The position numbers and the translations under genes are program-made. From the NCBI GenBank assembly GCA_044892525.1, contig CM097885.1:247132001-247196000 (forward strand): DNA of 64,000 nucleotides, in the 5' to 3' direction. The stretch is from Schmidtea polychroa. Its lineage: Eukaryota. The notes under the pieces were generated by a model. That model made no database searches and had not been told where the DNA came from. It saw only the letters and a program-made list of their open reading frames with translations. Of this stretch, positions 1 to 25,038 are shown piece after piece; the stretch's first letter is position 1, and each line of letters starts with the position of its first letter.

Positions 1-4
1 GAAG

Positions 5-3220: not shown

Positions 3221-4640
3221 ACGGACAACTGGTTAGTGGAGTGGTCGTGATAGAAAGCTACGAAGCTAAATTAGAAAGGTATCAAGGTTATTTCGACCCT
3301 GACACGCAAGCAATGAAGAAATACCCAAGTTGTCTCGCATCAGATCGATCATGTTCAACCGGAATGTCAACTCTGGTATACCATGCGGATCAGAAGGTAT
3401 GTCGACTAATGTTGCTCAAAACAGCAATATTCGAAGAAATCCAAGGGAAAGTATACAGTGAACCAAAAGGAGAAGCAGAAAAACGAGCGATGGAAGAGTT
3501 GAGAGCAAGGAAAGGATTCAGAGAAGACGTAATAACATCGAAATTGGAATCGGAAGTAACACCCACAGCGATAATCTCCAAAGACGATGGAATAGGAATG
3601 AGGTTCATAAAGAACAAAATGGTGAGTAAATGCGATGAGATGGTGATCAGCACCAATTATAAAGGGATCTACTTGTCGCGGAGAACCCTAGCAAATGCAG
3701 TCGGAAGACTAAGCGAAAAGGATGTCAAACTATATTTATACGCTAATAATAAGATGGATTTCTTATATCACAGAGGATTAACATCCACGGAAAAAGTCTA
3801 CCATGATCTGTTAAGAAACGATTGCCTGCTCAACAAAGAAATACTGAGAACCAAATTAGCAATGGCGATTACAAATCCAGATAACGCAATTCCGTTACTA
3901 CCATTACAGGAAGGATATTTCGGACGAATCGTGGGCGAAGTGATGTACACCTACCAATGCAAAAAGATAATGGCAAGATTGCCAGAAAACCCTACAATAC
4001 CAAGAGATAAGTGTGCAAACGAACTCGAAATTATCCACGAAGGTAAACCCAGGTTTGTGCAAGCAGTCACTAGGGTAATGAACCCGGTAGGGTTTCAACC
4101 AAATCTGTTTAATTGTAGTAATGCATATGGACCAATGTATGAAAAAGAAGATGGACAATGGGTTCAATTCCCAAGTAAAACAATCGTAGTAACGCCCAAG
4201 AAATTTGGATTGACGGAACTAACAACAGAACTAGAGTTCAAGCCGATAGACGTATCCCAGAGTGGATTATATACACCAAAAGATCTCGAATCAGCAAGAG
4301 CCCACCTGTTATTCCCAGCGCAAAGACAAGCAATCTTATCAAATATAGTGACTATTTCTGGAGGAAATAATTATGGGGAGAGCCCAAATTACGAGCTATT
4401 ATTATCACCAAGTCACTATCAACAAGCAACAGCAAACATGATGAAGGCTATGTGGGGTCGATTTTTGGTATTTGGCCAAATGATGGCAGGAATACTCGGA
4501 ATTATTCTGATAATACAAATAGTCAGAGTAATACTAACCCAGATGCTAGCATGTTTTGACATCTATAAGCGCGAGAGAAAAGTAAATTGGAAACTTGCAA
4601 TTGGATTCTTACCGTTCTTAGCGAAAACAATGGTGTTGCA
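2747..4640 (+). other. Env-like fusion glycoprotein of the chuvirus/Jingchuvirales type (class III-like), split by the frameshift near 3150
   Basis: Signal peptide MNAIITTILIWMMCIKGTES then FAVYDC; AGRITKGDGTCETGTY; YTYQCKKI; MWGRFLVFGQMMAGILGIILIIQIV membrane region, all resembling chuvirus G and its retroelement-borne homologues. Confidence 0.75.
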
Positions 4641-7600: not shown

Positions 7601-10600
7601 AATATTACTGGCCAAATATGAGCGATGACGTGAAAGAATGGATAAAGAACTGCCTGATATGCGCAACCAGAAAAACAACGGGCAGTAAACTAAAGCCACC
7701 ATTGAAACCAATGCCGATACCGCCAGAACCAATGACAATGATTGCAATGGATGTAGTTGGACCACTACCAGAGACTAACAGTGGAAATGTGTATATATTG
7801 GTAATAACTGATTATCTGACCAAGTTCCCTGAAGCATTTGCGATGCCAGACCAGAAAGCACGAACAGTTGCAAGGATATTAGTGGAAGAGATCTGCTGCA
7901 GATATGGGACACCAAAACAAATCTTAACTGATCAAGGAACTAATTTCATGAGCGAGATAATAAATGAAGTGACAAATTATTTTAGAATTGCCAAATTGAG
8001 AACCTCACCATACCACCCGCAAACGAATGGTCAGACAGAAAGATTTAACGGCATACTAATAGACATGATGTCCAATTACGTGAGTAAACATCAAAAGGAC
8101 TGGGATGAATATATTAAGTTGTGTCTAATGGCTTATCGAATGTCAATACACTCAGCAACGAAAATGAGTCCGTTTAAACTCATGTATGGAAGGGAATGCA
8201 ACATGCCGATGGATCTCGAATACCAACCGCCAATCTCACAATATATGGAGATAGATGATTATGTGACAAAGTTCAAGGAGAGAATGCAAGAAATATGGAA
8301 AACCGCAGGGATGAACATCCGATTCAACCAAGAGAGTTATAAGGAATTGCATGATAAAAAGAAGAACGTACAAAACCATCAATTTAAAATCGGAGATTGG
8401 GTTATTATAGAAACACCCGAATTAATCCCAGGAACAGCAAAGAAATTACAACGTAATGGCAGAGGGCCATATGAAGTCATCTATGTAAACGAGAACAACG
8501 CTAGAGTGAAGTTGGTTAACAATCCACTAATTAGACCCATTTATGTGAATACATGTCGATGCAAAGCAGTAGCGAAAACTGCCACTAAAGACCCAGAAAC
8601 AAGAAGGATAATCACGAGATCACAAACAAATGCCACAACGGAACCAGAAGTAAGCGGTAGATTAACTAGATCACAGACAAGACGAATATTCATGTTGAGA
8701 GGAGAAACAAGCAGCAGCGCCCATAAAGGAACTGAAGCAGAAAGCGAAGCTGACGCAATGGCAAGGAGCCAAGCAACATGGAATATGACAGTAAAAATAG
8801 CACGAGAAATTGTACCAGAATGGGCCGATATAACCAATAAATACCAAGTATTGGGCAAACTAATGTTAGTAGCAGAAAGATATGCGAAAGGACGAAGATA
8901 TGCCGAAGGATTACAAATACCGACTCAAATATATGAACTAATCCGGAGATTACCAATCATGTTCCTAACAAGTGATTTGAGTAATAACTGGCCAATCCAT
9001 CATGCAGTGAAAGCAGGACAAGAAAAACGAGCTTTAGAGATTATACGAATAATGGAAAACTGCAAACAATCAACAAACGTCAAAAACAGTAAAGGAAAAA
9101 CTCCACTGATGAAAGCCATAGCAATAGGCGCGTCAAGAGATGTACTCAGAGAATTATTAAGAACGGGATCCACGCTGAAAGAAAAAGACAACAAACAACG
9201 AACCGTATTACGTTATGCCGTCAGGTCAAAAAGACCTAGTATAGTGAACTTTATCACAGGAAATGCAACAACCGAAGAAGCCGAGGTGTTGGGACAGAGC
9301 ATTGAACCAATTCTGGAAGCCATCAGAGGAAACTTAGACAGAACCGCAGCAATATTAATCAAATGGAAACAAAACGAATTAAGAGCGGAAGTAATTGATA
9401 TAAATCAATTCCAAAACAACGAAAATATCGTACTAAGAAGCGCCATATACTCAAGACCACCAATGCCAAAAACCATTAAAGCAATATTACAGAGAAATAG
9501 AACAGAATTGACAGGTAATTGGTGGAAATGCACAAAAACACATGCGATGAAAAAGCAACTAGAAATACTAGTGTGGGAATGGCACCGGAAACAACGGAAA
9601 TATCAAGGAACCAAAGAAGAACGAGAAAGTATCCACAACGACAAAAAAGAGATAATTAAAAAATACGAGGAGATGATCAAAGCAGCAAATGTCGAGGACG
9701 ACATTTTCAGGAAAACCCCGGGTGAGAGGAATGACGACGACGACGACGACGAAAGGATGGGGGATAACGATAACAACCCAGAGGAAAACGACAGAGAACA
9801 GAATCCGGAAGGCGGAGAAACAACGAGTGATGATGAGGAATTGGAAGAAGACGAAGAAGACCAATGTCGAGGTGAAGATCAAGGATTCGACAAAACGGAG
9901 AACAAAAAACGAAAGTCCCCACTACATAGCATAGTGTGTCGAAATCAAATCCAGCCAATCCTACTACAAAGAATATTTATAATATTAACATCCATCTGTT
10001 TAACAGAAACAAAAAATATAAGAATCGTAAGAGAAGCTTCCCAAGAAGGTGAAGCATTTATGATAAAAGTCAGTGATTACGACGGAAATGCCGTCGGAAT
10101 ATGTGTGCAATTAATGGAAGGAACAGGAGTAAGTTGTGATTTCAGATCGATAACAAAAGGAAAGATTTTTAGCAGCCAAAAAAGAGATCCCAGGCTATGT
10201 GGAGATTATGACATCTGTAGAGACATATCAACAGAGGAAATGGAGCTAGAAAGAGCCAACGAAACCGGAGTACATTTTCAACTCAACATTTTGGAAGAAG
10301 GTATCGAAATAGAAGATAAAGGGAGTCGATCAATTACACATGTATGCATCAGAGAAGACAGAGACATATGCATAATAACTGATATGACACAAGACCACAA
10401 ATTCTTCTGGGGAGAGGTCAAACCAAATACCCCTACTGTGGTATGCGCAGGAACACAAGGGATAGTAGTATGTAAAGGAACAAGAACTGCACCAAGAAAA
10501 GACAAGCCAAAGAGTATGGCAATGAAACAAGATCCATTAAGGGGGATAGCAACCAAGAAGCCAAACAAATCAGTTAGTACAAAAACAACAACAGAGCAAA

Positions 10601-11448
10601 ATCAAACCGAATTAATAACAACAACAACATGGATTAACGAAGTAATTAAAGACGAAAGACGGGAAGTGCAGATAACTATTAACCTCAACAAGAAAGGTGA
10701 AGAGGTAATTACAGTCAAAAACCAGGAAGGAGAACCAATCATAAGGATATGTGTAATGGATAAGACGGGAATAATCGACTGTACAACAACACCGATAGAC
10801 AAAGGTACAGACGTTAAAATGGAGACAGGGAAACGGAAAGAACGATACCAAGTATGTATCCTTAAGAAAGGAAGAGGAACCAGCGTATGTCAACCAATAA
10901 CTCGACAAAAACCCCAATTAATAAACATACCATGGATACCCCGAGATCAAGAAGGGGGAGAGAAACGGGAAAATCACAGTCACCTAACAGAAAAAGAGAA
11001 GGAACGATTACATCAAGCATTCAAGAAAATCAAAGCACCAGAAACAAATACCACAGGTAGTACAATATTAACGACAGAAAAAACAAATAATGGAACAACG
11101 ATCATCACAAAGATGATATGGATAACTAGCGCGATAGTAAGCACGATAATAGCGTTAGCAATGATTCAGTGGATAAGAACCACCAAAAGATGTAAACAAA
11201 AACCGAGAAACCAAAGAAAATGGCCCAAAGTGGAAAAATTTGAATACGGTATTCCAACAGAGAATCTGAATCTAGAAGAATACGAGGTGGTAGAGGATCC
11301 CGGATCCAGCGGATTGTGGATGTCGGAACTACCAAGAATACCCACACCGAACGAATGGACACACGAAGTCGATATATACCGAATAACGGACGAAAGATAT
11401 GGGGGAATGCGCACGCTGCATTCCGGCCCCATGGCGACACTGGTATAA
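3217..11448 (+). CDS. pol: Polyprotein part 2: glycoprotein remainder, Pol (PR-RT-RH-IN), ankyrin repeats, C-terminal membrane protein
   Basis: 2743-codon uninterrupted frame, open from 3130; listed start is TTG, so it is probably the continuation of ORF1. Confidence 0.95.
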   Translation: MNGQLVSGVVVIESYEAKLERYQGYFDPDTQAMKKYPSCLASDRSCSTGMSTLVYHADQKVCRLMLLKTAIFEEIQGKVYSEPKGEAEKRAMEELRARKGFREDVITSKLESEVTPTAIISKDDGIGMRFIKNKMVSKCDEMVISTNYKGIYLSRRTLANAVGRLSEKDVKLYLYANNKMDFLYHRGLTSTEKVYHDLLRNDCLLNKEILRTKLAMAITNPDNAIPLLPLQEGYFGRIVGEVMYTYQCKKIMARLPENPTIPRDKCANELEIIHEGKPRFVQAVTRVMNPVGFQPNLFNCSNAYGPMYEKEDGQWVQFPSKTIVVTPKKFGLTELTTELEFKPIDVSQSGLYTPKDLESARAHLLFPAQRQAILSNIVTISGGNNYGESPNYELLLSPSHYQQATANMMKAMWGRFLVFGQMMAGILGIILIIQIVRVILTQMLACFDIYKRERKVNWKLAIGFLPFLAKTMVLHGHSKDIHRIKRLLKILTQMKGTDEEVGRKFKVIMRLEAERTQEKAKRTGKWKKWMNLRRDDDSDNDNDDFDDDDNNQGGAMLINKNTATWENEKMKPWGSPYSQTPYLQAPTNGPMRRPGTMRERIRMGTGRLPVPNIYPTAYEPNWAAMDPTMIKPIKNVGQEVETRTIAVLQTPAGPSLTITVEVNGIEMDAMIDTGANISAINMNMLPGRLWPCIEETTMDVITCSKQSIAVVGRVWSTIEYKGVKVTTYLAVIRQLSVSCIIGTDVMPELLKEIVIDLSSMKLKDKTGQICTMRTEVRCSEKMIIPARTQTICYVKVDNEVKGDMIFEPSQKFEKRRELPLAREIVSINEDNEIPINITNFDEEDKVIYENERLGKLTPMMNIELPEIKSEGADEKELWTIDSELLNKDEKEQLRQLLIEFKDIFAASDLELGTSDVTQHIIPLTDETPITLRPYRLAEAQKTVAEEEVQKMLDAGVIEPSCSPWQFPVVMVKKKDGTQRFCIDYRRLNAVTKRDTYPLPDINEMLQMLHGAAYFTSLDLKSGYWQIKVKEEDREKTAFTIGKDLYQFKKMPFGLTNAPASFQRCMNFVTHGIKQCMVYIDDLLIYSGTFEQHLIDIRNVFIRLKQWKLKLKPSKCDWAKERVTFLGHIVSAKGKEPDPRNVEKIKNCPIPKTVTQVQEFLGLCGYYRKFIKNYATIAKPIQELTKKDTPFLWEREQQIAFESLRDKLIASPILIHPDFKKPFLLATDASGYASGAVLGQWDEEKRERVIGYYSKTFKKHEKNYSVTEREALAIIQAIKHFKYLLWGHEIIITTDHQPLVWLGQHKEASSRLMRWAMQLQEYSPYIKFKSGKANANADCMSRFVFEELMDHDVRRICLIIAEDIDFTNLKNEQKEDNELKLIIEFLEKNDMKIFNNDDRLKEHMEKNRHRYTIEKGWLLVMDGDKRLMCLPESRRKEIMIQYHDGKLGGHMSAKKTEARLKQKYYWPNMSDDVKEWIKNCLICATRKTTGSKLKPPLKPMPIPPEPMTMIAMDVVGPLPETNSGNVYILVITDYLTKFPEAFAMPDQKARTVARILVEEICCRYGTPKQILTDQGTNFMSEIINEVTNYFRIAKLRTSPYHPQTNGQTERFNGILIDMMSNYVSKHQKDWDEYIKLCLMAYRMSIHSATKMSPFKLMYGRECNMPMDLEYQPPISQYMEIDDYVTKFKERMQEIWKTAGMNIRFNQESYKELHDKKKNVQNHQFKIGDWVIIETPELIPGTAKKLQRNGRGPYEVIYVNENNARVKLVNNPLIRPIYVNTCRCKAVAKTATKDPETRRIITRSQTNATTEPEVSGRLTRSQTRRIFMLRGETSSSAHKGTEAESEADAMARSQATWNMTVKIAREIVPEWADITNKYQVLGKLMLVAERYAKGRRYAEGLQIPTQIYELIRRLPIMFLTSDLSNNWPIHHAVKAGQEKRALEIIRIMENCKQSTNVKNSKGKTPLMKAIAIGASRDVLRELLRTGSTLKEKDNKQRTVLRYAVRSKRPSIVNFITGNATTEEAEVLGQSIEPILEAIRGNLDRTAAILIKWKQNELRAEVIDINQFQNNENIVLRSAIYSRPPMPKTIKAILQRNRTELTGNWWKCTKTHAMKKQLEILVWEWHRKQRKYQGTKEERESIHNDKKEIIKKYEEMIKAANVEDDIFRKTPGERNDDDDDDERMGDNDNNPEENDREQNPEGGETTSDDEELEEDEEDQCRGEDQGFDKTENKKRKSPLHSIVCRNQIQPILLQRIFIILTSICLTETKNIRIVREASQEGEAFMIKVSDYDGNAVGICVQLMEGTGVSCDFRSITKGKIFSSQKRDPRLCGDYDICRDISTEEMELERANETGVHFQLNILEEGIEIEDKGSRSITHVCIREDRDICIITDMTQDHKFFWGEVKPNTPTVVCAGTQGIVVCKGTRTAPRKDKPKSMAMKQDPLRGIATKKPNKSVSTKTTTEQNQTELITTTTWINEVIKDERREVQITINLNKKGEEVITVKNQEGEPIIRICVMDKTGIIDCTTTPIDKGTDVKMETGKRKERYQVCILKKGRGTSVCQPITRQKPQLINIPWIPRDQEGGEKRENHSHLTEKEKERLHQAFKKIKAPETNTTGSTILTTEKTNNGTTIITKMIWITSAIVSTIIALAMIQWIRTTKRCKQKPRNQRKWPKVEKFEYGIPTENLNLEEYEVVEDPGSSGLWMSELPRIPTPNEWTHEVDIYRITDERYGGMRTLHSGPMATLV
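5180..5460 (+). other. Retropepsin aspartic protease
   Basis: AMIDTGANISAI (DTG at 5230) and downstream CIIGTDV (IIG.D motif). Confidence 0.93.
6000..6700 (+). other. Reverse transcriptase (Gypsy type)
   Basis: RFCIDYRRLN, YPLP, LDLKSGYWQI, MPFGLTNAPASFQR, YIDD at 6448-6459, FLGHIVS. Confidence 0.97.
6880..7250 (+). other. RNase H (Ty3-type)
   Basis: LATDASG..GAVLGQ, NYSVTEREALAI, TDHQPL, RLMRWAMQLQEY, KSGKANANADCMSR. Confidence 0.96.
7480..8500 (+). other. Integrase with HHCC zinc finger, DDE core and GPY/F module
   Basis: YHD...GHMS...CLIC; AMDVVGPLP; TDQGTNF; YHPQTNGQTERFN; RGPYEV at 8461-8478. Confidence 0.96.
8990..9490 (+). other. Ankyrin repeats (3 clear, up to 5) fused downstream of integrase
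   Basis: WPIHHAVKAGQ; KNSKGKTPLMKAIAIG..DVLRELLRTG; KDNKQRTVLRYAVRS match the G.TPLH.A...G consensus. Confidence 0.85.
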
Positions 11449-11596
11449 CGAGAGGAGGAGTTGTTGTAAATAATGTATAAATGAAATGATAAAAGTAGTG
11501 ATAATAGTAGTGGTATGTACAAAATAAAAGTAGTAAATTAAAACAATATGTAGAAAAATCAAAAACAAGTATGATGACCATGTATTATAAATAGGA

Positions 11597-12052
11597 ATGA
11601 ACCAGAGAAACGAAGAGCAAGAACACCCAAATGGGATACCACATGTTGTTGAAGTAAGAGAACAGCCGCTTATGAATGTACATCCAGTAGACATGATGGA
11701 AATGAACGTGCCAAACCAGCCGAGTCAGCCAACAGGATCCATGTGGAGGGCACAGTGTGAATTAATGACCCAATTGACAAATCAGACTCAAGAGCACTGG
11801 GTACGAAACCAAACGGCGTTGATAGAGAGTATTAATAGAAACGCAATATATATTACAAAAATAGAGGAACAACACCAAATAATCGCGCAACTAGAGTATA
11901 ATAACAATCAGTTAATAAGCCAAATCAGATGGCAAGCGGAAGAAATTAGAAGGTTGCATGAAAATCGACAACATGATGATATTACCAGTTTAGTCGAGTG
12001 GATGACCGGGTTACCAGGAACAGGGGAACCGGACTCGACGGTAGATGTGTAG
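11597..12052 (+). CDS. Cargo ORF, 151 aa, central coiled coil, unknown function
   Basis: ATG start, same strand and composition as the element, heptad pattern ITKIEEQHQIIAQLEYNNNQLISQIRWQAEEIRRL. Confidence 0.7.
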   Translation: MNQRNEEQEHPNGIPHVVEVREQPLMNVHPVDMMEMNVPNQPSQPTGSMWRAQCELMTQLTNQTQEHWVRNQTALIESINRNAIYITKIEEQHQIIAQLEYNNNQLISQIRWQAEEIRRLHENRQHDDITSLVEWMTGLPGTGEPDSTVDV

Positions 12053-12141
12053 GAGAAAAAGGAGTGAAATGTAAATAATCCTGTAAATAAATAGAGTTAT
12101 AATCAAGTAGAAATCCCAAGATTAAAAATCATCATTGTAGA

Positions 12142-13566
12142 ATGCAAAACAAAGCAGAGGAAAACCGGAGAGAAGCAGAGGAACAAAAGATTAACTATGA
12201 GTTGATGAGAAAATACCAAGCCGAGCCGGACGAGTTCGAAGAGAGATTATTATGTGCCGATACAGCATGTAGAAGATTATTAATTGGAGCAAGTCAAACT
12301 CGATGCGGGTGTAGATTGTGCCGAGGGTGTGATATAAGATTAGCCAGACTAAAGCGAGAAACTTGTCCAGGATGTGGAGAAGCATTTAAGTTGGTTCCCA
12401 CTGGTACGATACCGGATAGAGCAATGAACCGAGAAATCAGAGAAGTGAAAATAAGATGCACCCAAAGGTCATGCGAATGGACAGGCCGAGTAAAGGAGTT
12501 AAGAGCCCATACAGACGTATGCGAATATCTAGAATCGGAATGCGAAGCATGCACGGTAAAGTTTTTACGAAAAGAGAAAACCAAACATAAAGGGGAATGC
12601 AAAGCGCGAACGGAAAAATGCGAATTTTGCGGAGAAACTGCTAATTGGAGAGAAATCGAAATGGAACATCGAAACGCAGTAGAAAGACGGATTTGCGACG
12701 AATATACAGGGAAATGCCCAAACGAGTGTGGAGAAATTAACAACGTCAGATTAAATGAACATTGGGAGATATGCACGAGAAAAGCAATAAAATGCCCAAT
12801 GGTGACATTCGACTGTAGAGCACAATTACCAGCAGAAGAAATGAAGAAGCATGTGGAGGAGAATACATTCGAGCACATGCAAAAGATGATGAGAGCAATA
12901 GAGTTAACAGCAAGAGCAATTGAAGACGTCAAAGACGAACTCAAATCACATAAAATCATGATAAAAGAAATGCTGAGCTCACAGGAAAGCTTCGAAAATA
13001 CGAGAGAAGCCGTAACACAAAGGATGTTGAAATTAGACGACAAATTAGTCGAAGTAACTAAATTACAAACCAAATGGACTACAAAGGAACTGACAACAGA
13101 GGAACTACCAATACTACCATACATGTGGAAAATCCAAGGAATAACGGAAATAATGGAGCAAGCAAAGCAAGGAATCCAGACAACGATAGTGAGCAAACCA
13201 TTCTACGCCAAGAAACATGGATACAAGATGAAATTGAGATGGTTTCCAAATGGTGAAGGAAAGTTTAAAGATCGGTGCATGTCCATATATATGCAAATTT
13301 GTAAAGGAGATTTTGACGACCTAATAGCATGGCCATTCCGACATCGATTAAAAATATCTCTCTTAGGAGCAAAAAAGACACATATAATGTGTTTTCGAGC
13401 ATCCAGTCCAGCAGGGAATAAACCGATTACAGAGGTTAATCCTGCGGTAGGAGTAGCAGAGTTTATGCAGCTATACCAATTTAACGAAGGGTCCTACATA
13501 GAAAAGGACACTATATTCTTCCTAATCGAACTAGATGAGGAAGGACCAACAATAGAAATACGATAG
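12142..13566 (+). CDS. traf: Full-length intronless TRAF-family protein (variant RING, TRAF zinc fingers, coiled coil, MATH)
   Basis: RING CADTAC...CGCRLCRGC...CPGC; zinc fingers C...C.W.G....L..H...C; MATH YMWKIQG...SKPFY...YKMKLRWFPNGEG...GDFDDLIAWPF. Confidence 0.93.
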   Translation: MQNKAEENRREAEEQKINYELMRKYQAEPDEFEERLLCADTACRRLLIGASQTRCGCRLCRGCDIRLARLKRETCPGCGEAFKLVPTGTIPDRAMNREIREVKIRCTQRSCEWTGRVKELRAHTDVCEYLESECEACTVKFLRKEKTKHKGECKARTEKCEFCGETANWREIEMEHRNAVERRICDEYTGKCPNECGEINNVRLNEHWEICTRKAIKCPMVTFDCRAQLPAEEMKKHVEENTFEHMQKMMRAIELTARAIEDVKDELKSHKIMIKEMLSSQESFENTREAVTQRMLKLDDKLVEVTKLQTKWTTKELTTEELPILPYMWKIQGITEIMEQAKQGIQTTIVSKPFYAKKHGYKMKLRWFPNGEGKFKDRCMSIYMQICKGDFDDLIAWPFRHRLKISLLGAKKTHIMCFRASSPAGNKPITEVNPAVGVAEFMQLYQFNEGSYIEKDTIFFLIELDEEGPTIEIR

Positions 13567-13706
13567 ACGGATAGAAGGGAACTGTAAATATTTTGTAAAA
13601 ACGATGTAAAGTAAATATAAAGTTATTGTATACAGTAAAGTAACGTGCCAAAACCATAAAAATTAGAAAAAGAAAATGTAAAAAGAAATGATGAAATTTA
13701 TTATAG

Positions 13707-14885
13707 ATGATTAATCAAGAGAGACCGAATATCCGAAAGAAAACGATCACAATGAGAGAGGAAGAGGACAATATGTCACCTAGAGAAAGAGTGAAGGATG
13801 CGGAAGTCAGCAAAACAAAACCAAGTAGTTACGCATATTATCGGAGAATGGGAAACGATTATAATTGGGTACACGAAAATTTGAAACTGGGAAATAATGA
13901 ACAATTCAGATGTGAGAACCAGAGATATCTGTCATTTGAACATCAGACCATTTTTACCAAGGAACAAAGCCGAGCGCTAGCACGCGACGGATTTTTCTTC
14001 TCTGGAAAACCAGAGATACCCGATCAAGTAACATGTCGTTTCTGTAAAGGGAAATTAGCAGAATGGAAAAAAGGAGAACACCCAAAGGAGGAACATCGTA
14101 GACGATTCCCAACTTGTCTATTCGTACTGGGATTTGATGTACACAACAAACCGGAAATCAAATACGAAGCCTTGGAGAAATTGAAAACTGAAGACGAAAA
14201 AGGAGGGAAAATGAGCATCGCGATAACCAGAATCGTTGATGAGTATGTTCCAACTTGTGAAGGGGAATTCCTCACGCAAATAGCAGATAATAGAATGAAA
14301 ACGTTCGGAGATGATACGAGAGGACCTGAATTAGCAATAAGAGGGTTCTACCTAACAGAAAATCAAATACTAAAGTGTGAAAGATGCGAAAGCCAACAGA
14401 GATTACCGGAAGAAGGCATACCAGAAATTAGACATCAAGCATGGTGCCTATATCACAACGAACAAGAAACCGAATATCCGGAAGTACTAGTAACAGAGGA
14501 AGAGGTTGACGAAGTGGTAGACAAACCCAACATGTGCAGAGCGTTGAAAGCAGCCGGAATAGGCACGACAAGGGCAAAGAACATGATTAGAGAGAAACTA
14601 CAGAAAAATGTACATATACCAACAACAACGTACGATATGATCAGAGCGATAACCCAGTATAGAGAAAAACCTGAAACAAAAATAAAAGAAGAATCAATGG
14701 TCAAAACAGCTATCTTACGAGATATCAAATGTACTATGTGTTGGGAGAGGAGTGTAGAAGTTATTCATATGCCATGCGGACATTTGATCGCATGTGCCAC
14801 ATGTAGTAGAAAAGTAAAGGAATGTCCGATGTGCAGACAGAGGATTGCGCAGCGAATCAAAGGATTCCGCTACGCCGATCAATAA
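13707..14885 (+). CDS. iap: Inhibitor of apoptosis (IAP): BIR, degenerate BIR, C-terminal RING
   Basis: BIR1 R..SF...LARDGFFF...VTCRFC-x16-H-x6-C; BIR2 RMKTF...LAIRGFY...CERC...H...C; RING CTMC...PCGHLIACATC...CPMCR. Confidence 0.94.
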   Translation: MINQERPNIRKKTITMREEEDNMSPRERVKDAEVSKTKPSSYAYYRRMGNDYNWVHENLKLGNNEQFRCENQRYLSFEHQTIFTKEQSRALARDGFFFSGKPEIPDQVTCRFCKGKLAEWKKGEHPKEEHRRRFPTCLFVLGFDVHNKPEIKYEALEKLKTEDEKGGKMSIAITRIVDEYVPTCEGEFLTQIADNRMKTFGDDTRGPELAIRGFYLTENQILKCERCESQQRLPEEGIPEIRHQAWCLYHNEQETEYPEVLVTEEEVDEVVDKPNMCRALKAAGIGTTRAKNMIREKLQKNVHIPTTTYDMIRAITQYREKPETKIKEESMVKTAILRDIKCTMCWERSVEVIHMPCGHLIACATCSRKVKECPMCRQRIAQRIKGFRYADQ

Positions 14886-14967
14886 CAAAAATTAAAATTC
14901 CGTGTATAAAGTGTAGATAATAAATGTATGAAATAATAGTGGTAGTAATAGTGTAATTATTTAGACA

Positions 14968-16533
14968 ATGAATAAAGAATCACAAACCTATGTGGAAACC
15001 GAGATGCAACAACTCGAACAGTACAAATCCATCATACAAACATACGAAGCAGAAAGAGTAAAGAGAGAAATAGAAATGTACAAAACCATGTATGAGAAAA
15101 AGCAACAAGAATTAGAAGCGGAGAAGGCGGAAGCACTAGCAACAAAGGAGGAGTGGATGAAACAGGTAGAGGAATTAACCGAGGATGTGAGAAATACCTC
15201 AACATACCAAGAATTGGAGGAAGAGCTCTCGAATTTACGAACTCAGCGGATTATGGAGATAGTTGGGTTATGCGGAGAGATAATAATGCAGAAGGCACAA
15301 ATTAGGGAAGCAAAGGAGCAATACGAGGAGGAACAGCGTAAAACGGAACGAATAAAACTACAAGCGCAACAATGGAAACTAAAGTACGAAACCCTCCAGA
15401 CAAGGCAGAATGATAGTCACGAACATCAAATACGGAATTACAAGGCCGAACTAGAAGAAGTAAAGGGCAAATGCGCAATGATGAAAGAAAAATGGGAAAG
15501 ATGCAAAAAGACCCTAAACGAAGTCAGAGGGCAAGGGAGGAGAACACCGCATAGAGAACCAATTGTTAGAAATAACGTATTAGAGCGAATTAACACACAA
15601 ATAAAGATACAAGCCCAGAAATGGAAGTATAAATACCTAGGAAGTCAAACTCAAGTGCTCTATTGGAAAATCAGTAGCAAGGAACAACTGCGATTACGAA
15701 AAGCAGACCAAGAATTTTACGAAACAAGAGCTGCACAGCGAGAAGAAGAGGAAGTAGAGTGGAGAAAACGACAGCAGAAAACTGAGGAAACCGAAAAGTG
15801 TCTCAAGCATCAAGCCCGAAAATGGAAAAAGAATTGGAAAGAGACCAAAGAGGAGTTAAGACAGTTACCAATAAAACTGATGGAAAGAGACGAATTTAAA
15901 ATATGGGAAACGATAGAAAACCAAAAAGATGAGATCAGCCGATTGAGTAGAGAACATAGAATCAAGACGCGGATCAGCGACGGTAGACAGAGAATCATAA
16001 AGAAACAGACTCGAGAAATAAGAAGGTATGAATTCCAGGAAAAGAGATGGGAACAACAATTGACAGACCAAGATCGACAGATCCGACAATTACAAACCGA
16101 AGTGGAAGAAGCCAATCAAGAGATGAACGGATATAAAGGTATGTACACCCAAAGGGATGTGAATTGGAAGCACCAGATTGAGCTTAATGCGAAATATAGA
16201 GAGGAGTGCGACAAGACAATTCAACAAACCAAACAGGAAACCGAGATAATAAAACGATGCTTCGAAGAAAATGAAGCAAATTTGAGAGCGGAAATTGAGA
16301 AACTAAAAACGCTCGAAAGAACCCAACGATTGGAAGAGGAATTAAACGAAATGATAGAAAACGAAGGTAGATTAACGTTTTTATTGGATGAGGAAATAAA
16401 CATCTCAACGGAACTACGAGAGGAAATAGATCGGTTAAGGAGACAACCACCAATATTATTAATGCCTGCCGAAGTCACCACAGATGAAGGCTTCGATGAA
16501 AATAACGAACAAAATAACGCAACATGGATTTAG
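14968..16533 (+). CDS. Cargo ORF, 521 aa, long coiled-coil protein
   Basis: E/K/Q/R-rich heptads along most of the length; ATG preceded by an acceptor-like TAG. Confidence 0.8.
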   Translation: MNKESQTYVETEMQQLEQYKSIIQTYEAERVKREIEMYKTMYEKKQQELEAEKAEALATKEEWMKQVEELTEDVRNTSTYQELEEELSNLRTQRIMEIVGLCGEIIMQKAQIREAKEQYEEEQRKTERIKLQAQQWKLKYETLQTRQNDSHEHQIRNYKAELEEVKGKCAMMKEKWERCKKTLNEVRGQGRRTPHREPIVRNNVLERINTQIKIQAQKWKYKYLGSQTQVLYWKISSKEQLRLRKADQEFYETRAAQREEEEVEWRKRQQKTEETEKCLKHQARKWKKNWKETKEELRQLPIKLMERDEFKIWETIENQKDEISRLSREHRIKTRISDGRQRIIKKQTREIRRYEFQEKRWEQQLTDQDRQIRQLQTEVEEANQEMNGYKGMYTQRDVNWKHQIELNAKYREECDKTIQQTKQETEIIKRCFEENEANLRAEIEKLKTLERTQRLEEELNEMIENEGRLTFLLDEEINISTELREEIDRLRRQPPILLMPAEVTTDEGFDENNEQNNATWI

Positions 16534-16546
16534 TCGAAGGGAGATG

Positions 16547-16704
16547 NNNNNNNNNNNNNNNNNNNNNNNNNNNNNNNNNNNNNNNNNNNNNNNNNNNNNN
16601 NNNNNNNNNNNNNNNNNNNNNNNNNNNNNNNNNNNNNNNNNNNNNNNNNNNNNNNNNNNNNNNNNNNNNNNNNNNNNNNNNNNNNNNNNNNNNNNNNNNN
16701 NNNN
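16547..16704. other. Assembly gap (N-run) inside the element
   Basis: Run of n. Confidence 1.
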
Positions 16705-16775
16705 AAATTACAAAACCAAAAAATTCAGAATAAAAAGAAGACAAAAGGAAATATGATATGTATATTTTTGTAGAT

Positions 16776-17543
16776 ATGAATTATTTAAAAGAAAGAGAAT
16801 CAACGAGTAACGAAGGAAAGTCAAACGACCAACCTGAACAAAACCAGGATATGATACCAATCAAACAAGAACCGATGAAATATTATAGCAATAAATGGAG
16901 AGTCAGCAAGAAGTTGTTCAAATTAAAGATTGCAAATCAAAATGTAGAGATTACGAGATTGAGGCAGCATATTGTTCAATCAAGACGATTAATAAACACT
17001 GTCAAGCAAGAAATTTTGAGGGAAATAAAGGAATCGAAACGAAAAGAGACAGAAAATAAAAACCTGAGACGAGAGATAGTAGAGTTGAGAGCTCAGGCAG
17101 TAATCGAAGATTATTGGAAATCAGAAACAAGGAAGTTGAAAAAGATTGTGAATATCGACCAAGTCTATATCGAGCAGTTAGAAGCACAATATGCTTATGC
17201 AAAAACAAGAGTGCGAGAAAGTAAAAAAGTCGAGAAGAGAAATGTAAAACTCAAGGAAGAGATCAAGGAACAAAGAGAGGAAACAGAAAAACAATGGAAG
17301 TTGAAAGAAAATTACCGGAGAATCTTAAATCAAAAACGACGAAGCATGCAAGCATTGCAGACGGCAATAACCATCAAGCAGAGAAAATGGAAAAGTAAAG
17401 AGAAGCAATTACAAGAAATACCAGAATTAAAGAGACAGTTGATAGCAACGCAACTCGAAGTAATAAGAATGAACGAGTTGAGCAAAAGACGAGCACCTGA
17501 ACCTCCCGTAAAATTAAGGGATGAGGTCGGTGGCTCCCAATAA
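16776..17543 (+). CDS. Cargo ORF, basic coiled-coil protein (~255 aa; ATG 16776 preferred over 16758)
   Basis: Open frame 16758-17543; TTTTTGTAG acceptor directly before in-frame ATG 16776, matching the other cargo ORFs. Confidence 0.75.
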   Translation: MNYLKERESTSNEGKSNDQPEQNQDMIPIKQEPMKYYSNKWRVSKKLFKLKIANQNVEITRLRQHIVQSRRLINTVKQEILREIKESKRKETENKNLRREIVELRAQAVIEDYWKSETRKLKKIVNIDQVYIEQLEAQYAYAKTRVRESKKVEKRNVKLKEEIKEQREETEKQWKLKENYRRILNQKRRSMQALQTAITIKQRKWKSKEKQLQEIPELKRQLIATQLEVIRMNELSKRRAPEPPVKLRDEVGGSQ

Positions 17544-17619
17544 ATGAGACAAAATAACCGTGTAAATAAATTGTAAATAAAGCCAAGTAATTATTATTAA
17601 CATATATGTATATGTAAAG

Positions 17620-18606
17620 ATGAGAAGCCTAATCGTGATGATGATTATAATGACAATGCCAAAAATCCTGCAAGCAGAAGAATCAATGATCAGATGCCAG
17701 AAAGAATACCCATATCGCAGAGAAGATAGTACATGTAGTAGCTTTAAATCGATCTGCGAAAAACCCAATGAGGAATGCGAACAAATCAAGTTACAATGTT
17801 CGCAATGTCCACAAACAACTGAAAGTTCGACGGAAGTGCAAATGGCTCAGACAATAAAAACAATGTTAGAACAAGAAATGAAAGTTATCAGAACCCAGAT
17901 AGCAACATTAGCCAAACAATGTCAAAGTCAGAAATCAAAGAGAGAATCCCAAACAGATCCAGCCGCAATGAGAATGATGGTAATAATATTAGAGGAAATA
18001 AAACAACAGGTAACAGCAACCGCCTATGGACGTTCAAGCAATTGCGAAACAGTAGTAAAATCTTTGGAGGAAATGAAAGGAAAAATAACTTCCATCATCA
18101 AAGAGGAACCCAGCATTAAAAATGAGGTAACGAAAACCTTGAAAGAAATGACAAGGGAAATCCTAACTACCATAAACAAAAACCCAACGAACTCCGAGAA
18201 GATGATTAAAACCCTTGAGGCAATAAAGAAAGTTGTCACCTCAGAAGAAAACAAATTCAATAAGCCCGAAAAATCAGAAACGGCGGATACAACCCAATTA
18301 AAAGAAATTATGAACAAACCCAAAGTAATAGAACCGAGAGAGTCTGAATCCCTCACAATAGTGATCCTATTAGCGGCGAGCCTAATGATAAACATCACCG
18401 TACTGAGCCTGATTGCACTCAAACCCAATTCCAGTAAAGAAAGAAACAAAACCCTCAAACTAAAGGAACAATCAAGAAGTATTCGTATCCCAATGGAAGA
18501 ACAACTAGTCCAAACAACGAACCAACCAAGCTACTTCAAATCTTCCCCAAACATTGAAACCAGAGCCGTCATCGAGACGAGATCCCGAACAACCGAATTT
18601 TATTAA
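17620..18606 (+). CDS. Cargo ORF, 328 aa type I membrane protein with Cys-rich N-terminus
   Basis: Signal peptide MRSLIVMMIIMTMPKILQA; six-Cys cluster; TM LTIVILLAASLMINITVLSLIAL followed by a basic tail. Confidence 0.8.
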   Translation: MRSLIVMMIIMTMPKILQAEESMIRCQKEYPYRREDSTCSSFKSICEKPNEECEQIKLQCSQCPQTTESSTEVQMAQTIKTMLEQEMKVIRTQIATLAKQCQSQKSKRESQTDPAAMRMMVIILEEIKQQVTATAYGRSSNCETVVKSLEEMKGKITSIIKEEPSIKNEVTKTLKEMTREILTTINKNPTNSEKMIKTLEAIKKVVTSEENKFNKPEKSETADTTQLKEIMNKPKVIEPRESESLTIVILLAASLMINITVLSLIALKPNSSKERNKTLKLKEQSRSIRIPMEEQLVQTTNQPSYFKSSPNIETRAVIETRSRTTEFY

Positions 18607-20959
18607 TGTGACATCACGACAGTATAAACATTTCATGACATTATAAAACATTATCAAACAATCATGATTTCAAAGACTGAGACTGATTGTGACTAATAAC
18701 ATTGATTCTTGAGCATGATAATTTTATTTTTGTGTGGACCGACCTCGGTCGTTCTTTTTCTTCATCTTTCAACCCATCCGTAGAATGTAGTATAATAGTA
18801 GCCTTTTTATGTATGTGGGTATTGAGGTCACGACCCTGTAGCTCGTGGACCCAATTTGCATGTAGGCACTTGTAATATAGTGCAAGTATTCTGAAAATAA
18901 TTTTCTTCATCTTGTGATTTAAATTGCGGGTCGCAATTTTATGGGCCCCCGAGTGTTTTATGTTGGGCTAGAACTGATTTCTAGACCCAAAATACTAATT
19001 GTGACTGAAACGCGTAAGTACACAGCAAGTAAAAAAGCACCAAGTATAGTTAAATATTAAAACCTACACCAAATAAACAATATTAACTAAAGGAGAAAGC
19101 AACAAAAACATAAACAAAGAAATTAAACAAAATTATACAAAAGCAAGAAGTGATGCAAAAATCTAACTCAAAAATAACCAAATAAACACAGGGTTACAAA
19201 AAACAGACTCGAATAACTTAAAAGACGATAAAAACAGTAAAACATTCCAGAAAAACCCAGAACATTCTATAAAAATGGCGATGACCATCACAAAAGTTAT
19301 CTAGAACAACAAAAGTTAAGGAAAATAAATAAATTAGTATTAAAAATAATAAATCTTTAAAAGAAATTCACAAAACATCAGTTAAAATAAAAATTAAATT
19401 AAAAATAAAATAGAATGTTCTGGAACCGTTCCAAATCCATCATGGACGGCAAATTAACGAAAAATAATTAAAAAATAAAAATATAAAAATAAAAACAAAA
19501 ATTATGGCACAAAAATTGTCATTAAAAATAGCAAAATCGCTAAATAGAAAATTCTGGAATAAAAAGAATTCGAGTTTGTTTTAATGCATCAATACATACA
19601 CGTGTACTAAATAGGTATATATACTGACACGTTTCAGTCACAATCAATCACTTTTATGCCAAATTTTTGTGACGAAATTTCCAAAATCGATAGTAAGCAT
19701 TGATCTTTATTTGTATATTAATTGTTTAATTATATAGATGGTATTTTAAATTTATTTTTTGCTTAAAATTTTTTGCGATGTATGAGTGATCAACGGCGTA
19801 CTGGTATTCCTGCGTCGTTGTTCAGTCCTGCATCCAATTTATTAAAATCGCTATTAACAGGACATGCAGACACGCATTATCATTATTATAGTGATATTTA
19901 TTATATGATTTCTTTTTGTTCGGGTCAGCCGGAGGTCGAACTACTTCATGGTCCTGCCATGGAGTTAGGTCGAGGAAACCCTCCGCCTGACTCTTCGTAT
20001 TTATTTAAGGTCAGCCGTAAATGGTTGACTTAGCACACAACACTAAGGTTTGTGGACGTGGTCACAGTGAGGCCATGAAAGCAATATTCTTCCCGACTCA
20101 TTGCGTAATATACAATTAAACTCAACACTTAAAATCCTGAACAATAACTCTACACTAAGGTTCTAATTTGAGTAGAGCTCGTACCTAAAATTACACAATT
20201 CTACACTCACATTAATGTAGCTAGTTGATTCATAATGGTAATTTCAATTATACTTAGACATATGCCGAACTAGATTTTGTAGTAAGGATCTTTGATAAAG
20301 TAATAGAAAAAAGAGAGATATTCGGCATACGTACAGGTATAACTTGATCTAGATATGTTGATTCCGAGTAAAGATAGACATTTTAAATCTAGCTCCCACT
20401 TTAAAATGTTTGTAAATGTGTAGGCTCTTAGTTGCAATATTCTTGTTGTTAACTATAAAACTATAAGTTATAAATAATTACGATAGCTAGGTACAAACCA
20501 CGTCGATCCTGAAAATGTAAATTGTTAATGGAGAAAGTCTGATCAGAGATAGTAGTAAACAATTTTCGTATAAAAATCAACTTAGGATTGGTTACAGATA
20601 GGCGATAGACGCGCTAGAACCCTGAAGTTTAATCCACAAATAGGACCAGGAAATCTGTAAGTACTGCGGAAAACAATGTTGATCATAGAAGGAAGTTGTA
20701 AGAAGTATATTCCGTCGACTAAAAATTTCAAATTATAAAGTATGAAAATACGAATTACAAAAGTATAAATTTTAGATTATAAACTTATAAATTATAAGTT
20801 AAGCAATTATAACTTATAAAAAATGAATGTATAAATTTCAAAATATGAAATTAATTATAAATTACAAGATTGTAAATCCCTAAATGGAAAAATTTTAAAT
20901 TATAAATCGAAAATTATCAAAGTATAAATTATAAAACATGAATTTATAATTCTAAAACA

Positions 20960-21320
20960 TGGATTATAAAATTATAGTTATCATAATCCTGATCATTTCC
21001 CTTGTTATTACTATTAGCAGTATCAACATTATCATTACTATTAGTATTATTATTCTTATTATTATTATATTATTATTATCATTATTATGAATATCATAAT
21101 TAGCATTATTATTATTATCATCATTATCAGTACCATTATAAAAATTTATTATTATTCTTGTTATTACTATTATTAGTATTCTTATTATTACCATTATTAA
21201 AATTTATTATTATTCTTATTATTATTACTATCATTGCTATTATTAATATTATTATTATCATTATTATTACTATTATTAGTATCGTTATTTCATTGTTATT
21301 ATTATTGGTATTATTACAGT
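20960..21320. repeat. Degenerate (ATT/ATC/ACT)n trinucleotide microsatellite
   Basis: About 360 nt of attatt/atcatt/actatt units. Confidence 0.9.
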
Positions 21321-21831
21321 TAACTACAAAAAATCGATATCCCAATCCGATATCGATCACCTGGAAATTTAGAAATTAGCAAATTAAATAAATTACTTGT
21401 ATGCAGAGCAAACCACTCATAACGAGCACAACCGAAGGAAAGGTAAGCAGACGAAGAGCTTAGTTCGTTGCTAGTACCTGTCGCCCCAGCGTGCCCGAAT
21501 TTAGTGGCCTAAGAATGACGATCAAAAAGGAAAAAATTCACATTTTATTAATATGTAAATTAAAATTTATAAATAGTAATTAAAATTACTACTCAGTGGT
21601 AAACAAAATTTTGAATGGAAATGATTAATTTAAACAAACGAATTTTGACGAAAATTTTTTTTGTGTGTTTGTTTTGATAAAGTAGGAAATCTTATTCCAC
21701 TGCTCCTAAACTTATAGATGGTAGTCTTAAAATAAAATATTTTTTTTTAAAGGGAAAAAGGGTCAACAAAATCTTGTGGTTGACGTCGTATCTCAATCAG
21801 TATAGAGGGGCTTGATTATTATTTTGTAGAA

Positions 21832-22197
21832 ATGTCCTACTCTGACAGCGATAGCCACGAAGAAGCCGACCGACAGATGCTTACCAGACTCCGTACACGG
21901 TACATATGGCACCGTATCCATGATTGGAATCGGGGTTTGGACCTCGACAACTTTGGCCCAGTAATCAGGAGTGGGCCGGAGCCGGACGCTCCGGCGTGGG
22001 TAAAAACAGAGCCCACAAACGATTTTTTGCAAGAGGCCCGCGACCGAGCGGCCATCGAGGTAGAAGCAGCTCAGATGCGACTCAAGAAGATCGAGCTACA
22101 AATCCAAGCAGAAAAAGAGGGAAAAACCGTGGAGGACCTAGAAGAGGCCGAGGCAACCCCGCGGAAGAGGGGAAGGCCTCGCAAGCGACTGAACTGA
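21832..22197 (+). CDS. 121-aa protein with C-terminal AT-hook
   Basis: GC-richer island; PRKRGRPRKR; TTTTGTAG acceptor 2 nt before ATG. Confidence 0.6.
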   Translation: MSYSDSDSHEEADRQMLTRLRTRYIWHRIHDWNRGLDLDNFGPVIRSGPEPDAPAWVKTEPTNDFLQEARDRAAIEVEAAQMRLKKIELQIQAEKEGKTVEDLEEAEATPRKRGRPRKRLN

Positions 22198-22408
22198 CTC
22201 ATCGTCAAAAATTTTGTTTTTTGCAAATTAACATTCAGTTGCGATTTTATTAAACTTTGATTTTAGTGATAATTATTTCAGTCCTTTTAATAAATCATCT
22301 TGTGTATTGCGTGCTTAACATCCGAAACTATGTTTATTTATAATATTGATTTTATTTTATAATTGAATGAATAGTATGCTGCAAGAATATAATCGTTGAA
22401 TTTATCTA

Positions 22409-22879
22409 GTGTTCAGACTATTGGAAAATCTGCGAAGAGATAGGGCAGAAGCTCAAAAACAGTCCGAGGAGCTCCGCATACGAGTAGACAAGCTCAAGGG
22501 ACGGTGCCGGGAACTAGAAAGCACCTGGTTTAGTCCCGAGGATATGAAAAAGAAGGTGGCGCAGGTCCTTCAACTGCAGACTCAAGCCGCGCAGGATCAG
22601 ATGGAGATCCGGGCACTGAAGCTCCAGCTCCGCGCGCTAGAAACCGAGCGAAATGAACAAGTAGTTCACGGAGCCGCCATAAGCCAAATCCGGCCGTTGA
22701 CCGTGGAACTAGCAGCAATATACCCCCCGGCCGCGAAAGAGAAACCCAAAAGAAAGCGGTTAGGCCGAAATATTCGGGAAAAATTGAAGAAAGCTAGACT
22801 GGCCGAATACGAGCGACAAGCAAATTTGTCACTAGCAGCTGCGACGAAATTGGCCAGTCCTACCAATAAGCCTGTTTGA
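22409..22879 (+). CDS. Coiled-coil protein with basic NLS-like C-terminus (5' end probably supplied by splicing)
   Basis: 156-codon frame without ATG at its start; TTTATCTAG acceptor at 22401-22409; KPKRKRLGRNIREKLKK. Confidence 0.55.
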   Translation: MFRLLENLRRDRAEAQKQSEELRIRVDKLKGRCRELESTWFSPEDMKKKVAQVLQLQTQAAQDQMEIRALKLQLRALETERNEQVVHGAAISQIRPLTVELAAIYPPAAKEKPKRKRLGRNIREKLKKARLAEYERQANLSLAAATKLASPTNKPV

Positions 22880-25038
22880 ACTTATATTCGGTTTTAGGTG
22901 TTTTGTAGTATTTTTATGTATTGTGGTAGTCTTCAAATAATATGTTCCTTGTTAAAATACTGCACGTTTTGTAGTGATAAAATAATGACTAGTACAGTTT
23001 ATGATTGCCTGGGAAATGAGAGTTTGTGCATAAGGTTGGGAAAACAATTTTGATAAAGGGACCTGAGAAATCGGACACACACCTTCTATCGGTAGTCCGT
23101 GAACCCACGGAGTACTCGACAACTATAGTGCTTTGATGCGCTCACTTTTTGCGAGTACTCAACCCTTGGTACAGTACCAACGTTGATCACTCAACGGGTA
23201 CCAAGCGGAAAAACAATGTTGTATTTTGGGTTACGCTGGTAACAGCACTCAATCATTCAACCACCAGTAACCCACCAATAGAAAATAAAAATTCAAAACA
23301 AAATTCAAGCACTTTATTTGAAATCATAATTTCCACTAAAAATTAATATTTTATGCAGTAACACAAAATGTCAAATACAAGAAAATTTATAAAAAATATA
23401 TATTTCAAAGCATAAATTTCAAGATTCGATAATCAAAACCATATCCGAATTGTTTCAAAGTGTTGACACATAAATCCAACAATTAATGGATATTGAAAAT
23501 CCACCATTGAATTTGAAAACAATTAAATTAGAAAAATAACTACTCAGCAATTATAATGGCATTTTAAAAACAGTAATTAATTATAAATCTAAATATAAAA
23601 AATTAAGAAACTTTCGAGTTTTTTCTGTACACTGGGATTCAGTAATACATTTAAATGCATATACTTAATTAAATATTTTATAGTTTTTTAATAGTTTCAT
23701 TATCGTTAAATTTTCTCTTTTTGTTTTGATTATCAATAATATAACTATTTGAATAATTATTTACATCACTATTGGAATAAACACTTGTAATCCTATAAGG
23801 TTGATTGACTTTGATCTTTTCAATAGGATTTACTCGATAATGATTAATGCTAGTCCTGAACAATAGGCCGTATTAAATAAACATTAAAAAAATAGATAAA
23901 AGCGAATAGCAATACGGGACCGTGAATTGATAAGATGGTTAATAGTTTTTCTTATTACAAGATTATTCCTATATTAAATCGACAAAATTAATAATTATAT
24001 CGACAATATTACTATTTATATCGACAATATTAATTATTATGGACAATATTAATTATTATCAATAATATAAATAGTTATTAGTAATGACAAAATTATTTAT
24101 TAAAAAGTTTGAAGACTGAATCAGTAAATATATCAAAATATATCGATATATTTACTGATTCGTAGTCTTTAAGCTTTTTACAATGGAAATACAATGGGAA
24201 AGAAATCAGTGGTGAAATTTGAAAAAAAGTTCTTATAATACAAAATTATTTATTTAATCTTTCTCTCTAAATCGTAGCGATATCCCGGAAGCAATTGCTC
24301 CAGTTATCATACGTATGCTCTTATTTTAGTTAATGAAAAATCCGAATCAAAAGAATTTAATAAAACAAATCAGCTATAAAAGATGTCATATAAATTCCTG
24401 ATATCTAACATATAGTGAAGCTTAATTTGCATCAACATTCGTCTATTACTGGTCTGCAAATCATCGAACATTCCAATGACATATAACAGTGCAGCTCTTT
24501 GATGAGCTGTGTGGCTCCCAATATCAGAGCAGTAGCTAGGGATGGCAAATGGGGCGACCGCCCCGGGCGCCGAGTCGAAGGGCACCAAAACTGTGAAATG
24601 ATCATTTAAATTTTTTTTGCTTTTCTTTCTTTTTTTCATATTAAATTTTTATATTCTGCTTTCGATGTTTACTGTTTTCAAAAGTTAAACTAAAACAAAA
24701 CTGTTTTGCTAGTCTATCTAAAGGTTTTTGCAAACAGGTGACTAAATCCGAAAGTGGCTGATCATGAAAACAGTCATGAGCATAAAAAACGCTATTTAGC
24801 CTGGAAAGATCTTGAAAATCGTTTGAAAGAATGAAGGACAATTAATGATAATGGTTATAGATATCGATATGCCCGATACAGTAGTCTATATATAAAAACG
24901 AGAAATCGGAGAATAGCCTATTCAATATTGAGAAAAGAATCAGAATTATTTTTTCATAGTAATGGAAATTTTGTAAAACATGGCGACTCATTTCTTGTAA
25001 ACTCGGCCACCCGCTGATATATTATAACGAAAACCAAC

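Follow-up and report, generated by a model that had tools for sequence, protein, structure and literature searches.

A conserved, predicted RNA structure at the U5 end of Burro-like gypsy LTRs in Schmidtea polychroa, likely to help start reverse transcription

Two stretches in a 64,000-nt piece of the Schmidtea polychroa genome (contig CM097885.1; hereafter the window, whose own numbering is used below) resemble each other, and the locus raises the question of whether they hold a selected nucleic acid structure and, if so, what that structure does. The original prediction, made from the sequence alone, took 23138-23280 and 59731-59873 for copies of a selected cis-acting RNA or single-stranded DNA element. 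The similarity was confirmed, since 23139-23279 and 59732-59874 are 70.8% identical over 144 nt (E 1.5e-11) and the window contains two instances of a 20-nt core common to them where none is expected. Both copies terminate in the CA that ends a long terminal repeat (LTR), at 23277 and 59872. When the first and the second copy were used as queries in genome searches, 40 matches each were scored out of 2,569 and 1,912 candidates, respectively, and in the 30 loci fetched per search (29 of 30 located in the second) the similarity breaks off at one and the same motif ending in CA, with differing flanks. From modelled folds and pair counts, we conclude that the copies hold a genuine RNA structure, kept by selection, at the U5 end of retroelements of a known kind.

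The first stretch is the end of the 3' LTR of a young, full-length, Burro-like gypsy element of about 34 kb (Table 1), whose 5' LTR lies 30 kb upstream (L082:8938-10000 continued in L081:1-3254) and whose 3' LTR is followed by the 4-bp target duplication ATAG at 23278-23281. The element shows two direct LTRs, the PR-RT-RH-IN order and a tRNA primer site, as in Ty3/gypsy elements. According to Pfam, the ORFs of its internal region, in which a split interrupts the large polyprotein frame near 3130-3220, encode MATH, fusion-glycoprotein env, PR-RT-RH-IN, ankyrin, TRAF-like and BIR-RING domains, and gag is located upstream of the window. The internal region is common to all 12 fetched copies of this family (family A) at about 97-99.5% identity, and 12 of 12 fetched copies contain the 9 kb upstream of the first copy wholly or for the most part. 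A length of 34.3 kb, the MATH/TRAF, BIR and ankyrin cargo and an env placed between gag and PR are the marks of Burro/GYPSM1. In the sections of the planarian report on which we draw, Burro/GYPSM1 elements likewise exceed 30 kb, have multi-kb LTRs and hundreds to thousands of copies, and carry MATH/TRAF, BIR and ankyrin domains with an in-frame fusion-glycoprotein env before PR-RT-RH-IN (PMC6431247), a likeness of described layout and not of the Burro1-4 sequences. Besides the window element, we were able to identify four further full-length elements with LTRs of 1.6-4.2 kb and 4-bp duplications. TG...CA ends, identical LTRs and 4-bp duplications are found in all five full-length families (A to E), whose LTRs all begin TGTTGGGCT and whose U5 ends vary.

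Some further features of these LTRs were recorded. Two small basic ORFs without a Pfam match lie inside the window LTR (21784-22197 and 22400-22879), the latter with tblastn relatives in the LTRs of families C, D and E and of an older family. At LTR positions of about 390-620, families C, D and E (L180, L185 and L190) contain a direct repeat of 26-30 nt with 50-nt spacing, which was looked for and not found in families A and B; a donor-like GTAA ends its first copy, and this arrangement suggests a start near the 5' LTR end and a very long R. In four RNA runs available as contigs only, which carry no information on transcript starts, ends or level, L081:1500-4300 has a depth peak over the motif, pooled from many families.

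Table 1 Location of the elements described in the text, in window coordinates
Feature	Position	Strand	Basis
Internal region (3' part) of the full-length Burro-like Ty3/gypsy element	1..18960	+	ORFs, Pfam, family-A copies
Motif in place of a polypurine tract (hairpin and G/C run)	18923..18960	+	5/5 full-length families
Predicted 6-bp hairpin of this motif	18923-18937	+	motif before the 3' LTR
G/C run, with predicted pairing to the primer site and to the two U directly before it	18943-18953	+	duplex prediction
3' LTR, 4,317 bp, TG...CA	18961..23277	+	99.97% identity to the 5' LTR
13-nt antisense match to domain II within the family-A LTR, unexplained	19783..19795	-	shuffles
Domain I (helix 23109-23118/23152-23160 around a small hairpin and CTCAC)	23109..23160	+	folds, alignment
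Domain II, lower stem	23165-23172/23198-23205	+	pair counts, 20 natural copies
Domain II, 8-nt bulge	23173-23180, opposite single G 23197	+	composition in 58 copies
Domain II, upper stem	23181-23186/23191-23196	+	pair counts, 20 natural copies
Domain III, terminal U5 hairpin	23219..23277	+	folds, spacer pairing
Decayed LTR end of an older related family	59604..59872	+	bulge at 59767-59774

The second stretch is a decayed LTR end left by an older, related family. Members of this family are 79-84% identical to the stretch and have little in common beyond the last 230 nt. The 3' strands of its domain II are mutated, and neither an LTR start upstream of it nor a primer site after it was found. Degenerate tandem repeats of about 130-260 bp occupy 57465-58024, upstream of this copy, and at L074:8610-9091 the conserved 230-nt LTR end is tandemly duplicated in one old copy. 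A search of metagenomes for relatives returned 16 matches with a GC content of 46-67%, none of them followed by an LTR start, and these were taken as chance.

The structure that we predict comprises three domains and, unlike the base pairs drawn in the original prediction, is kept across diverged families. The helix of domain I forms at the same position from differing sequences in 13 of 13 single-copy folds from families A to E and encloses a near-invariant CTCAC motif (23141-23145), which stands out as invariant columns in the alignment. Domain III corresponds to the terminal hairpin that had already been proposed, and this hairpin proved to be real. In the case of the 5' LTR, the predicted partner of its base is the 8-nt spacer behind the LTR (L081:3255-3262), the spacer bases being mostly paired, with a probability of about 0.9-1, in 16 of 16 folded copies, and the complementary sequences differ between family A and families B to E. 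In prediction, therefore, U5 pairs with LTR-adjacent sequence by the primer site, as in a U5-IR-type structure, and since this pairing is available only at the 5' LTR, domain III would act in the leader of the genomic RNA. The CAACGTTG/TGATCA palindromes were considered as dimer signals and rejected, as the TGATCA part forms stem and loop, both of which vary among families.

The remaining pairs of the original drawing fared worse. Its inner stem is replaced in our folds, where the GTACT strand pairs upstream within the domain I helix and the AGTACCAA segment bulges out unpaired, and its outer stem clashes with a covarying stem and uses a partner strand that is absent from the diverged families. 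The T-A to A-T change claimed as compensatory is a private mutation of the window's second copy, because the changed 5' base occurs in one of 30 second-family copies, namely the window copy itself, the other 29 mostly having a T.T mismatch at this pair. That the second copy folds in the way originally drawn is explained by the broken 3' strands of its domain II. Nor is there support for an LTR end-to-start junction, which had been suggested from a GGGTTAC segment: in the terminal hairpin, this segment makes up the 5' arm, and none of 11 matches to an end/spacer/start pattern had an LTR end upstream. Two partial motifs had also been reported on the minus strand. The one at 56869-56890 is an 11-nt match at chance level (at least 11 nt in 19 of 100 block-shuffled windows). 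The other is a 13-nt antisense match whose length was reached in 2 of 100 shuffled windows and in none of 200 shuffles of the family-A LTR, but it is confined to family A and absent from the four other families. What stands of the idea of a selected cis-acting element is the structure itself, tied to priming and LTR ends; its base pairs and its compensatory change do not.

Searches for primer sites returned 407, 4, 10 and 668 matches (the 407 and 668 partly overlapping), from which 84 junctions, 63 of them distinct and belonging to at least five diverged families, were obtained. Domain II is present in 58 of the 63; the other five comprise two interrupted LTRs, one unrelated element and two damaged copies. 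The structural support consists of single-copy folds and of pair counts, the latter made in 20 natural copies. These were picked by hand to span families, out of a pool of 26 distinct cores together with both window copies and a single copy of family 2. In these, 97.5% of 240 cells are paired, both sides change in 10 of 12 pairs and 64 cells are double changes against 20 in shuffles, counts that overstate independence, because the fold was drawn from the same sequences and the families are related. None of 500 shuffles reaches either the paired fraction or the covariation score of domain II, and controls in which the pairing was slid along are 28-53% paired. In the stems of the 58 junction copies, 14 cells are G.U and none is A.C, which favours plus-strand RNA over minus-strand single-stranded DNA.

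The eight positions of the domain II bulge read, in the 58 copies, A58, G52/T6, T48/C9/G1, A53/T4/G1, C58, C57/A1, A58 and A58; positions 1, 5, 7 and 8 are thus invariant and position 6 is C in 57 of 58. A genome-wide pattern, which leaves out family B, was run both for C and for any other base at bulge position 5. With C, 4,039 matches were obtained (control 7), and the bulge reads CCAA in 98 of the first 100 listed; with another base, which amounts to a genome-wide screen of the first base of the bulge codon, there were 101 scattered matches (control 22), and the 30 that were inspected are decayed copies or chance. The distance from bulge to CTCAC is 32-36 nt (24 in one copy) and that from bulge to primer site varies between 113 and 174 nt; nearly fixed in one direction and variable in the other, this spacing suggests that domains I and II may form a unit serving a different purpose.

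Immediately behind the 5' LTR, after the 8-nt spacer, a tRNA-Pro primer site starts at L081:3263; the TGG segments inside the hairpin, earlier put forward for comparison with tRNA 3' ends, are therefore not the primer site. In 61 of 61 junctions, chosen by a 15-nt primer-site match, the site is complementary over 18-24 nt to the genome's own tRNA-Pro(UGG) gene. Among 13 near-identical family-A copies, three different sequences (10, 2 and 1 copies) directly follow position 18. Sequence differing after this position is expected where a modified tRNA is copied, and the divergence right after base 18 thus fits copying of the tRNA primer. The spacer between the CA of the LTR and the primer site measures 7-8 nt at all primer-site loci (L081:3255-3262 in the window element), the usual spacer being about 2 nt, and would leave a long overhang for the integrase to remove. 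A T almost always precedes the primer site (four exceptions against the partly overlapping 407 and 668 matches).

Other primers were sought with a pattern built on the spacer of families B to E, which would miss families with other LTR ends, and its 18 matches were all mutated Pro sites or unrelated sequence. One locus, L131, has a tRNA-Pro primer site without the three-domain fold and is probably another gypsy family. A tandem tRNA-Pro(UGG) array with a 475-bp period was noticed at L086 (G000:C1:130901009 onward), and a 3' tRNA pattern has 2,164 genomic matches. GAACCC, a candidate primer-activation signal directed at the T arm, is found within local hairpins in families A, B and C and is absent from D and E.

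Textbook LTR replication needs a polypurine tract. Ty3 and retroviruses prime their plus strand from such a tract, which the parts of the literature used here treat as a usual feature of LTR elements (PMC5371799). In all five full-length families no polypurine tract was found before the 3' LTR, the longest purine run in the last 30 nt being 3-4 nt. Its place is taken by a conserved motif consisting of a predicted hairpin and a G/C run, which also precedes the 3' LTRs at L176, L182, L187 and L192. It has 1,177 exact genomic matches against 0 for the control, and among the first 100 listed, 99 continue into the G/C run. For this run, a duplex with the primer site and the two preceding U is predicted, of 12 bp in families A, D and E and of 10 bp with one mismatch in B and C. 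Shuffled primer sites did as well in 5, 8 and 7 of 500 cases for A, D and E and in 69 and 42 for B and C, so that this predicted pairing is moderately supported in the former three families and weakly in the latter two, in which self-pairing of the run competes and is equally strong. The pairing is kept mostly through changes that G.U pairs tolerate. We regard the missing polypurine tract as a departure in replication signals and not as grounds against the Ty3/gypsy class, which is based on the enzymes. In family A, a long hairpin spanning the U3 boundary is also predicted at 18887-18998 (z -2.2).

From the predicted folds and their place, we conclude that the LTR-end structure likely helps to start reverse transcription rather than acting as a ribozyme. 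The specific role that we propose, and that we consider to have a little better than an even chance of being correct, is that of a leader for tRNA-primed initiation, which would set the primer tRNA in place and govern the onset of minus-strand synthesis. The three domains would fold in the genomic RNA directly before the tRNA-Pro primer site. Domain III would fold away 60-120 nt of U5 and pair with the spacer outside the LTR, and would for this reason work at the RNA 5' end and hold domain II by the primer site; the same LTR end, as DNA, would also serve as the integrase attachment site. In the weakest step, the bulge of domain II would present CCAA to the anticodon loop (U33-G36) of tRNA-Pro(UGG). 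CCAA is the complement of these four bases; its 5' neighbour, which would lie opposite G37, is variable. Judged from the modelled bulge and by analogy, a contact with the primer anticodon is tentative and more doubtful than not. Still more speculative, and in our opinion rather unlikely, is the joint reading in which the bulge would grip the anticodon of tRNA-Pro and the polypurine tract would be replaced by a hairpin and an anti-primer-site run pairing the genome ends.

One alternative is a protein-binding site. Proteins typically bind internal loops whose bases are fixed and whose stems covary freely, and domains I and II have two such loops, with a nearly constant CTCAC-bulge spacing and a variable distance to the primer site. 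They could accordingly be bound by Gag/nucleocapsid for packaging, or by a basic protein encoded in the LTR that would control export or splicing of the full-length RNA, leaving domain III for priming and integration. The small basic ORFs of the LTR, one with relatives in C, D, E and the older family, would suit the second variant. A poly(A) site about 410-430 nt before the LTR end, where signal-like hexamers with G/T-rich downstream sequence occur in A, D and E but not in B and C, would place the domains in U5 and hence only at 5' ends. Compact family B, however, keeps all three domains with an LTR devoid of any ORF of at least 70 aa, and the match of CCAA to the primer anticodon loop would have to be a coincidence; overall we deem a protein site unlikely. 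The anticodon is also not the only partner that CCAA fits, as UGG begins every primer site and these LTRs, and the UUGG present both at the primer-site edge and at the LTR start is an equally good complement of CCAA. The bulge might then pair with the element's own RNA, at the primer-site edge or at the UGUUGG of the U3 start, as a switch or as a 5'-3' circle aiding strand transfer. In line with this, the LTRs of all five families share their start despite variable U5 ends, the T before the primer site is almost constant, and some family-C folds (L123 and L148) pair the bulge with the primer-site edge. Such a pairing would be only 4-6 bp, though, the bulge is open in most folds, pairing with the motif in place of the polypurine tract would equally account for the U's ahead of the primer site, and three copies with A for that U (L132-L134) retain CCAA, which makes this reading improbable.

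The conserved bases might, alternatively, be splicing or promoter signals modulated by the stems, with GTAAG as a donor-like, CTCAC as a branch- or initiator-like element, a pyrimidine tract and the CAG at the bulge. GTAAG does occur in families B to E and in the window's second copy, at about 250 nt from the LTR end, and CTCAC lies about 30 nt before CAG; but family A is without GTAAG, AT stands in place of the AG in 6 of 58 copies, which come from several subfamilies, and CCAA and the single G are left unexplained, so that we rate this as highly improbable. Invariant loop bases in two neighbouring covarying domains would also be compatible with a self-cleaving ribozyme of a new class, acting through docking of the two internal loops. 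No Rfam match was obtained (comparison with the family covariance models gave 0 matches at gathering score in the window, and six loci gave two chance matches, E 3.7 and 4.1, both off the motif), no pseudoknot consistent among families was seen, and a cut just before the primer site would sever the strong-stop DNA template; a ribozyme is, on these grounds, hardly credible.

With thousands of copies in many diverged families, these elements constitute a natural covariation set for the leader fold of an env-bearing gypsy clade, and a clade without a polypurine tract permits a direct test of alternative plus-strand priming. In the literature searched, which lay outside subscription papers and Repbase, we found no description of the LTR-end fold or of the missing polypurine tract in these elements. 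Should the joint reading be true, it would imply a new plus-strand priming and 7-9 extra bases at the cDNA ends, and the bulge would be a T-box-like specifier in an animal retroelement. Should the structure be only a U5-IR variant with a protein site, the result would be a useful annotation and nothing beyond that.

The predicted structure shares individual traits with several known systems. The hepadnavirus epsilon element, with lower stem, bulge and upper stem in the leader of a reverse-transcribed RNA, templates protein priming. Unlike epsilon, the LTR end is accompanied by a full tRNA primer site. CCAA stays constant in the bulge and the U5 end differs among families, on which ground priming of the epsilon type at the U5 end was rejected. 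In the T-box riboswitch, the specifier loop is an internal loop displaying a codon. The bulge resembles it in showing a codon (here CCA, for proline) followed by A. The T-box is bacterial and requires elbow-binding T-loops and an antiterminator, modules that were not seen in the LTR-end structure, which also had no Rfam match. As for a codon that tracks the tRNA, all primer sites found are tRNA-Pro, and no family with another first codon base turned up among the inspected matches of the genome-wide screen. Contacts of the primer tRNA beyond the primer site are known from a few retroviruses and from yeast Ty elements. The A-rich loop of HIV-1, in the portions of the reports used here, is similarly unpaired, located 5' of the primer site and complementary to the primer anticodon loop (PMC2691828; PMC3185550); it is apical, near the primer site and shown experimentally, whereas ours is a predicted 8x1 bulge 113-174 nt away. 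The contact of the HIV-1 loop with the tRNA-Lys3 anticodon depends on the isolate, according to the excerpted account (PMC3185550). Domain III, for its part, is paralleled by the U5-IR of Rous sarcoma virus and by LTR/flank stems, in which, as far as the source extracts go, U5 likewise pairs outside the LTR, adjoins the primer site and overlaps the integrase attachment end (PMC3601003). Unlike the U5-IR, the structure described here combines a spacer of 7-8 nt between CA and primer site with two more conserved domains upstream.
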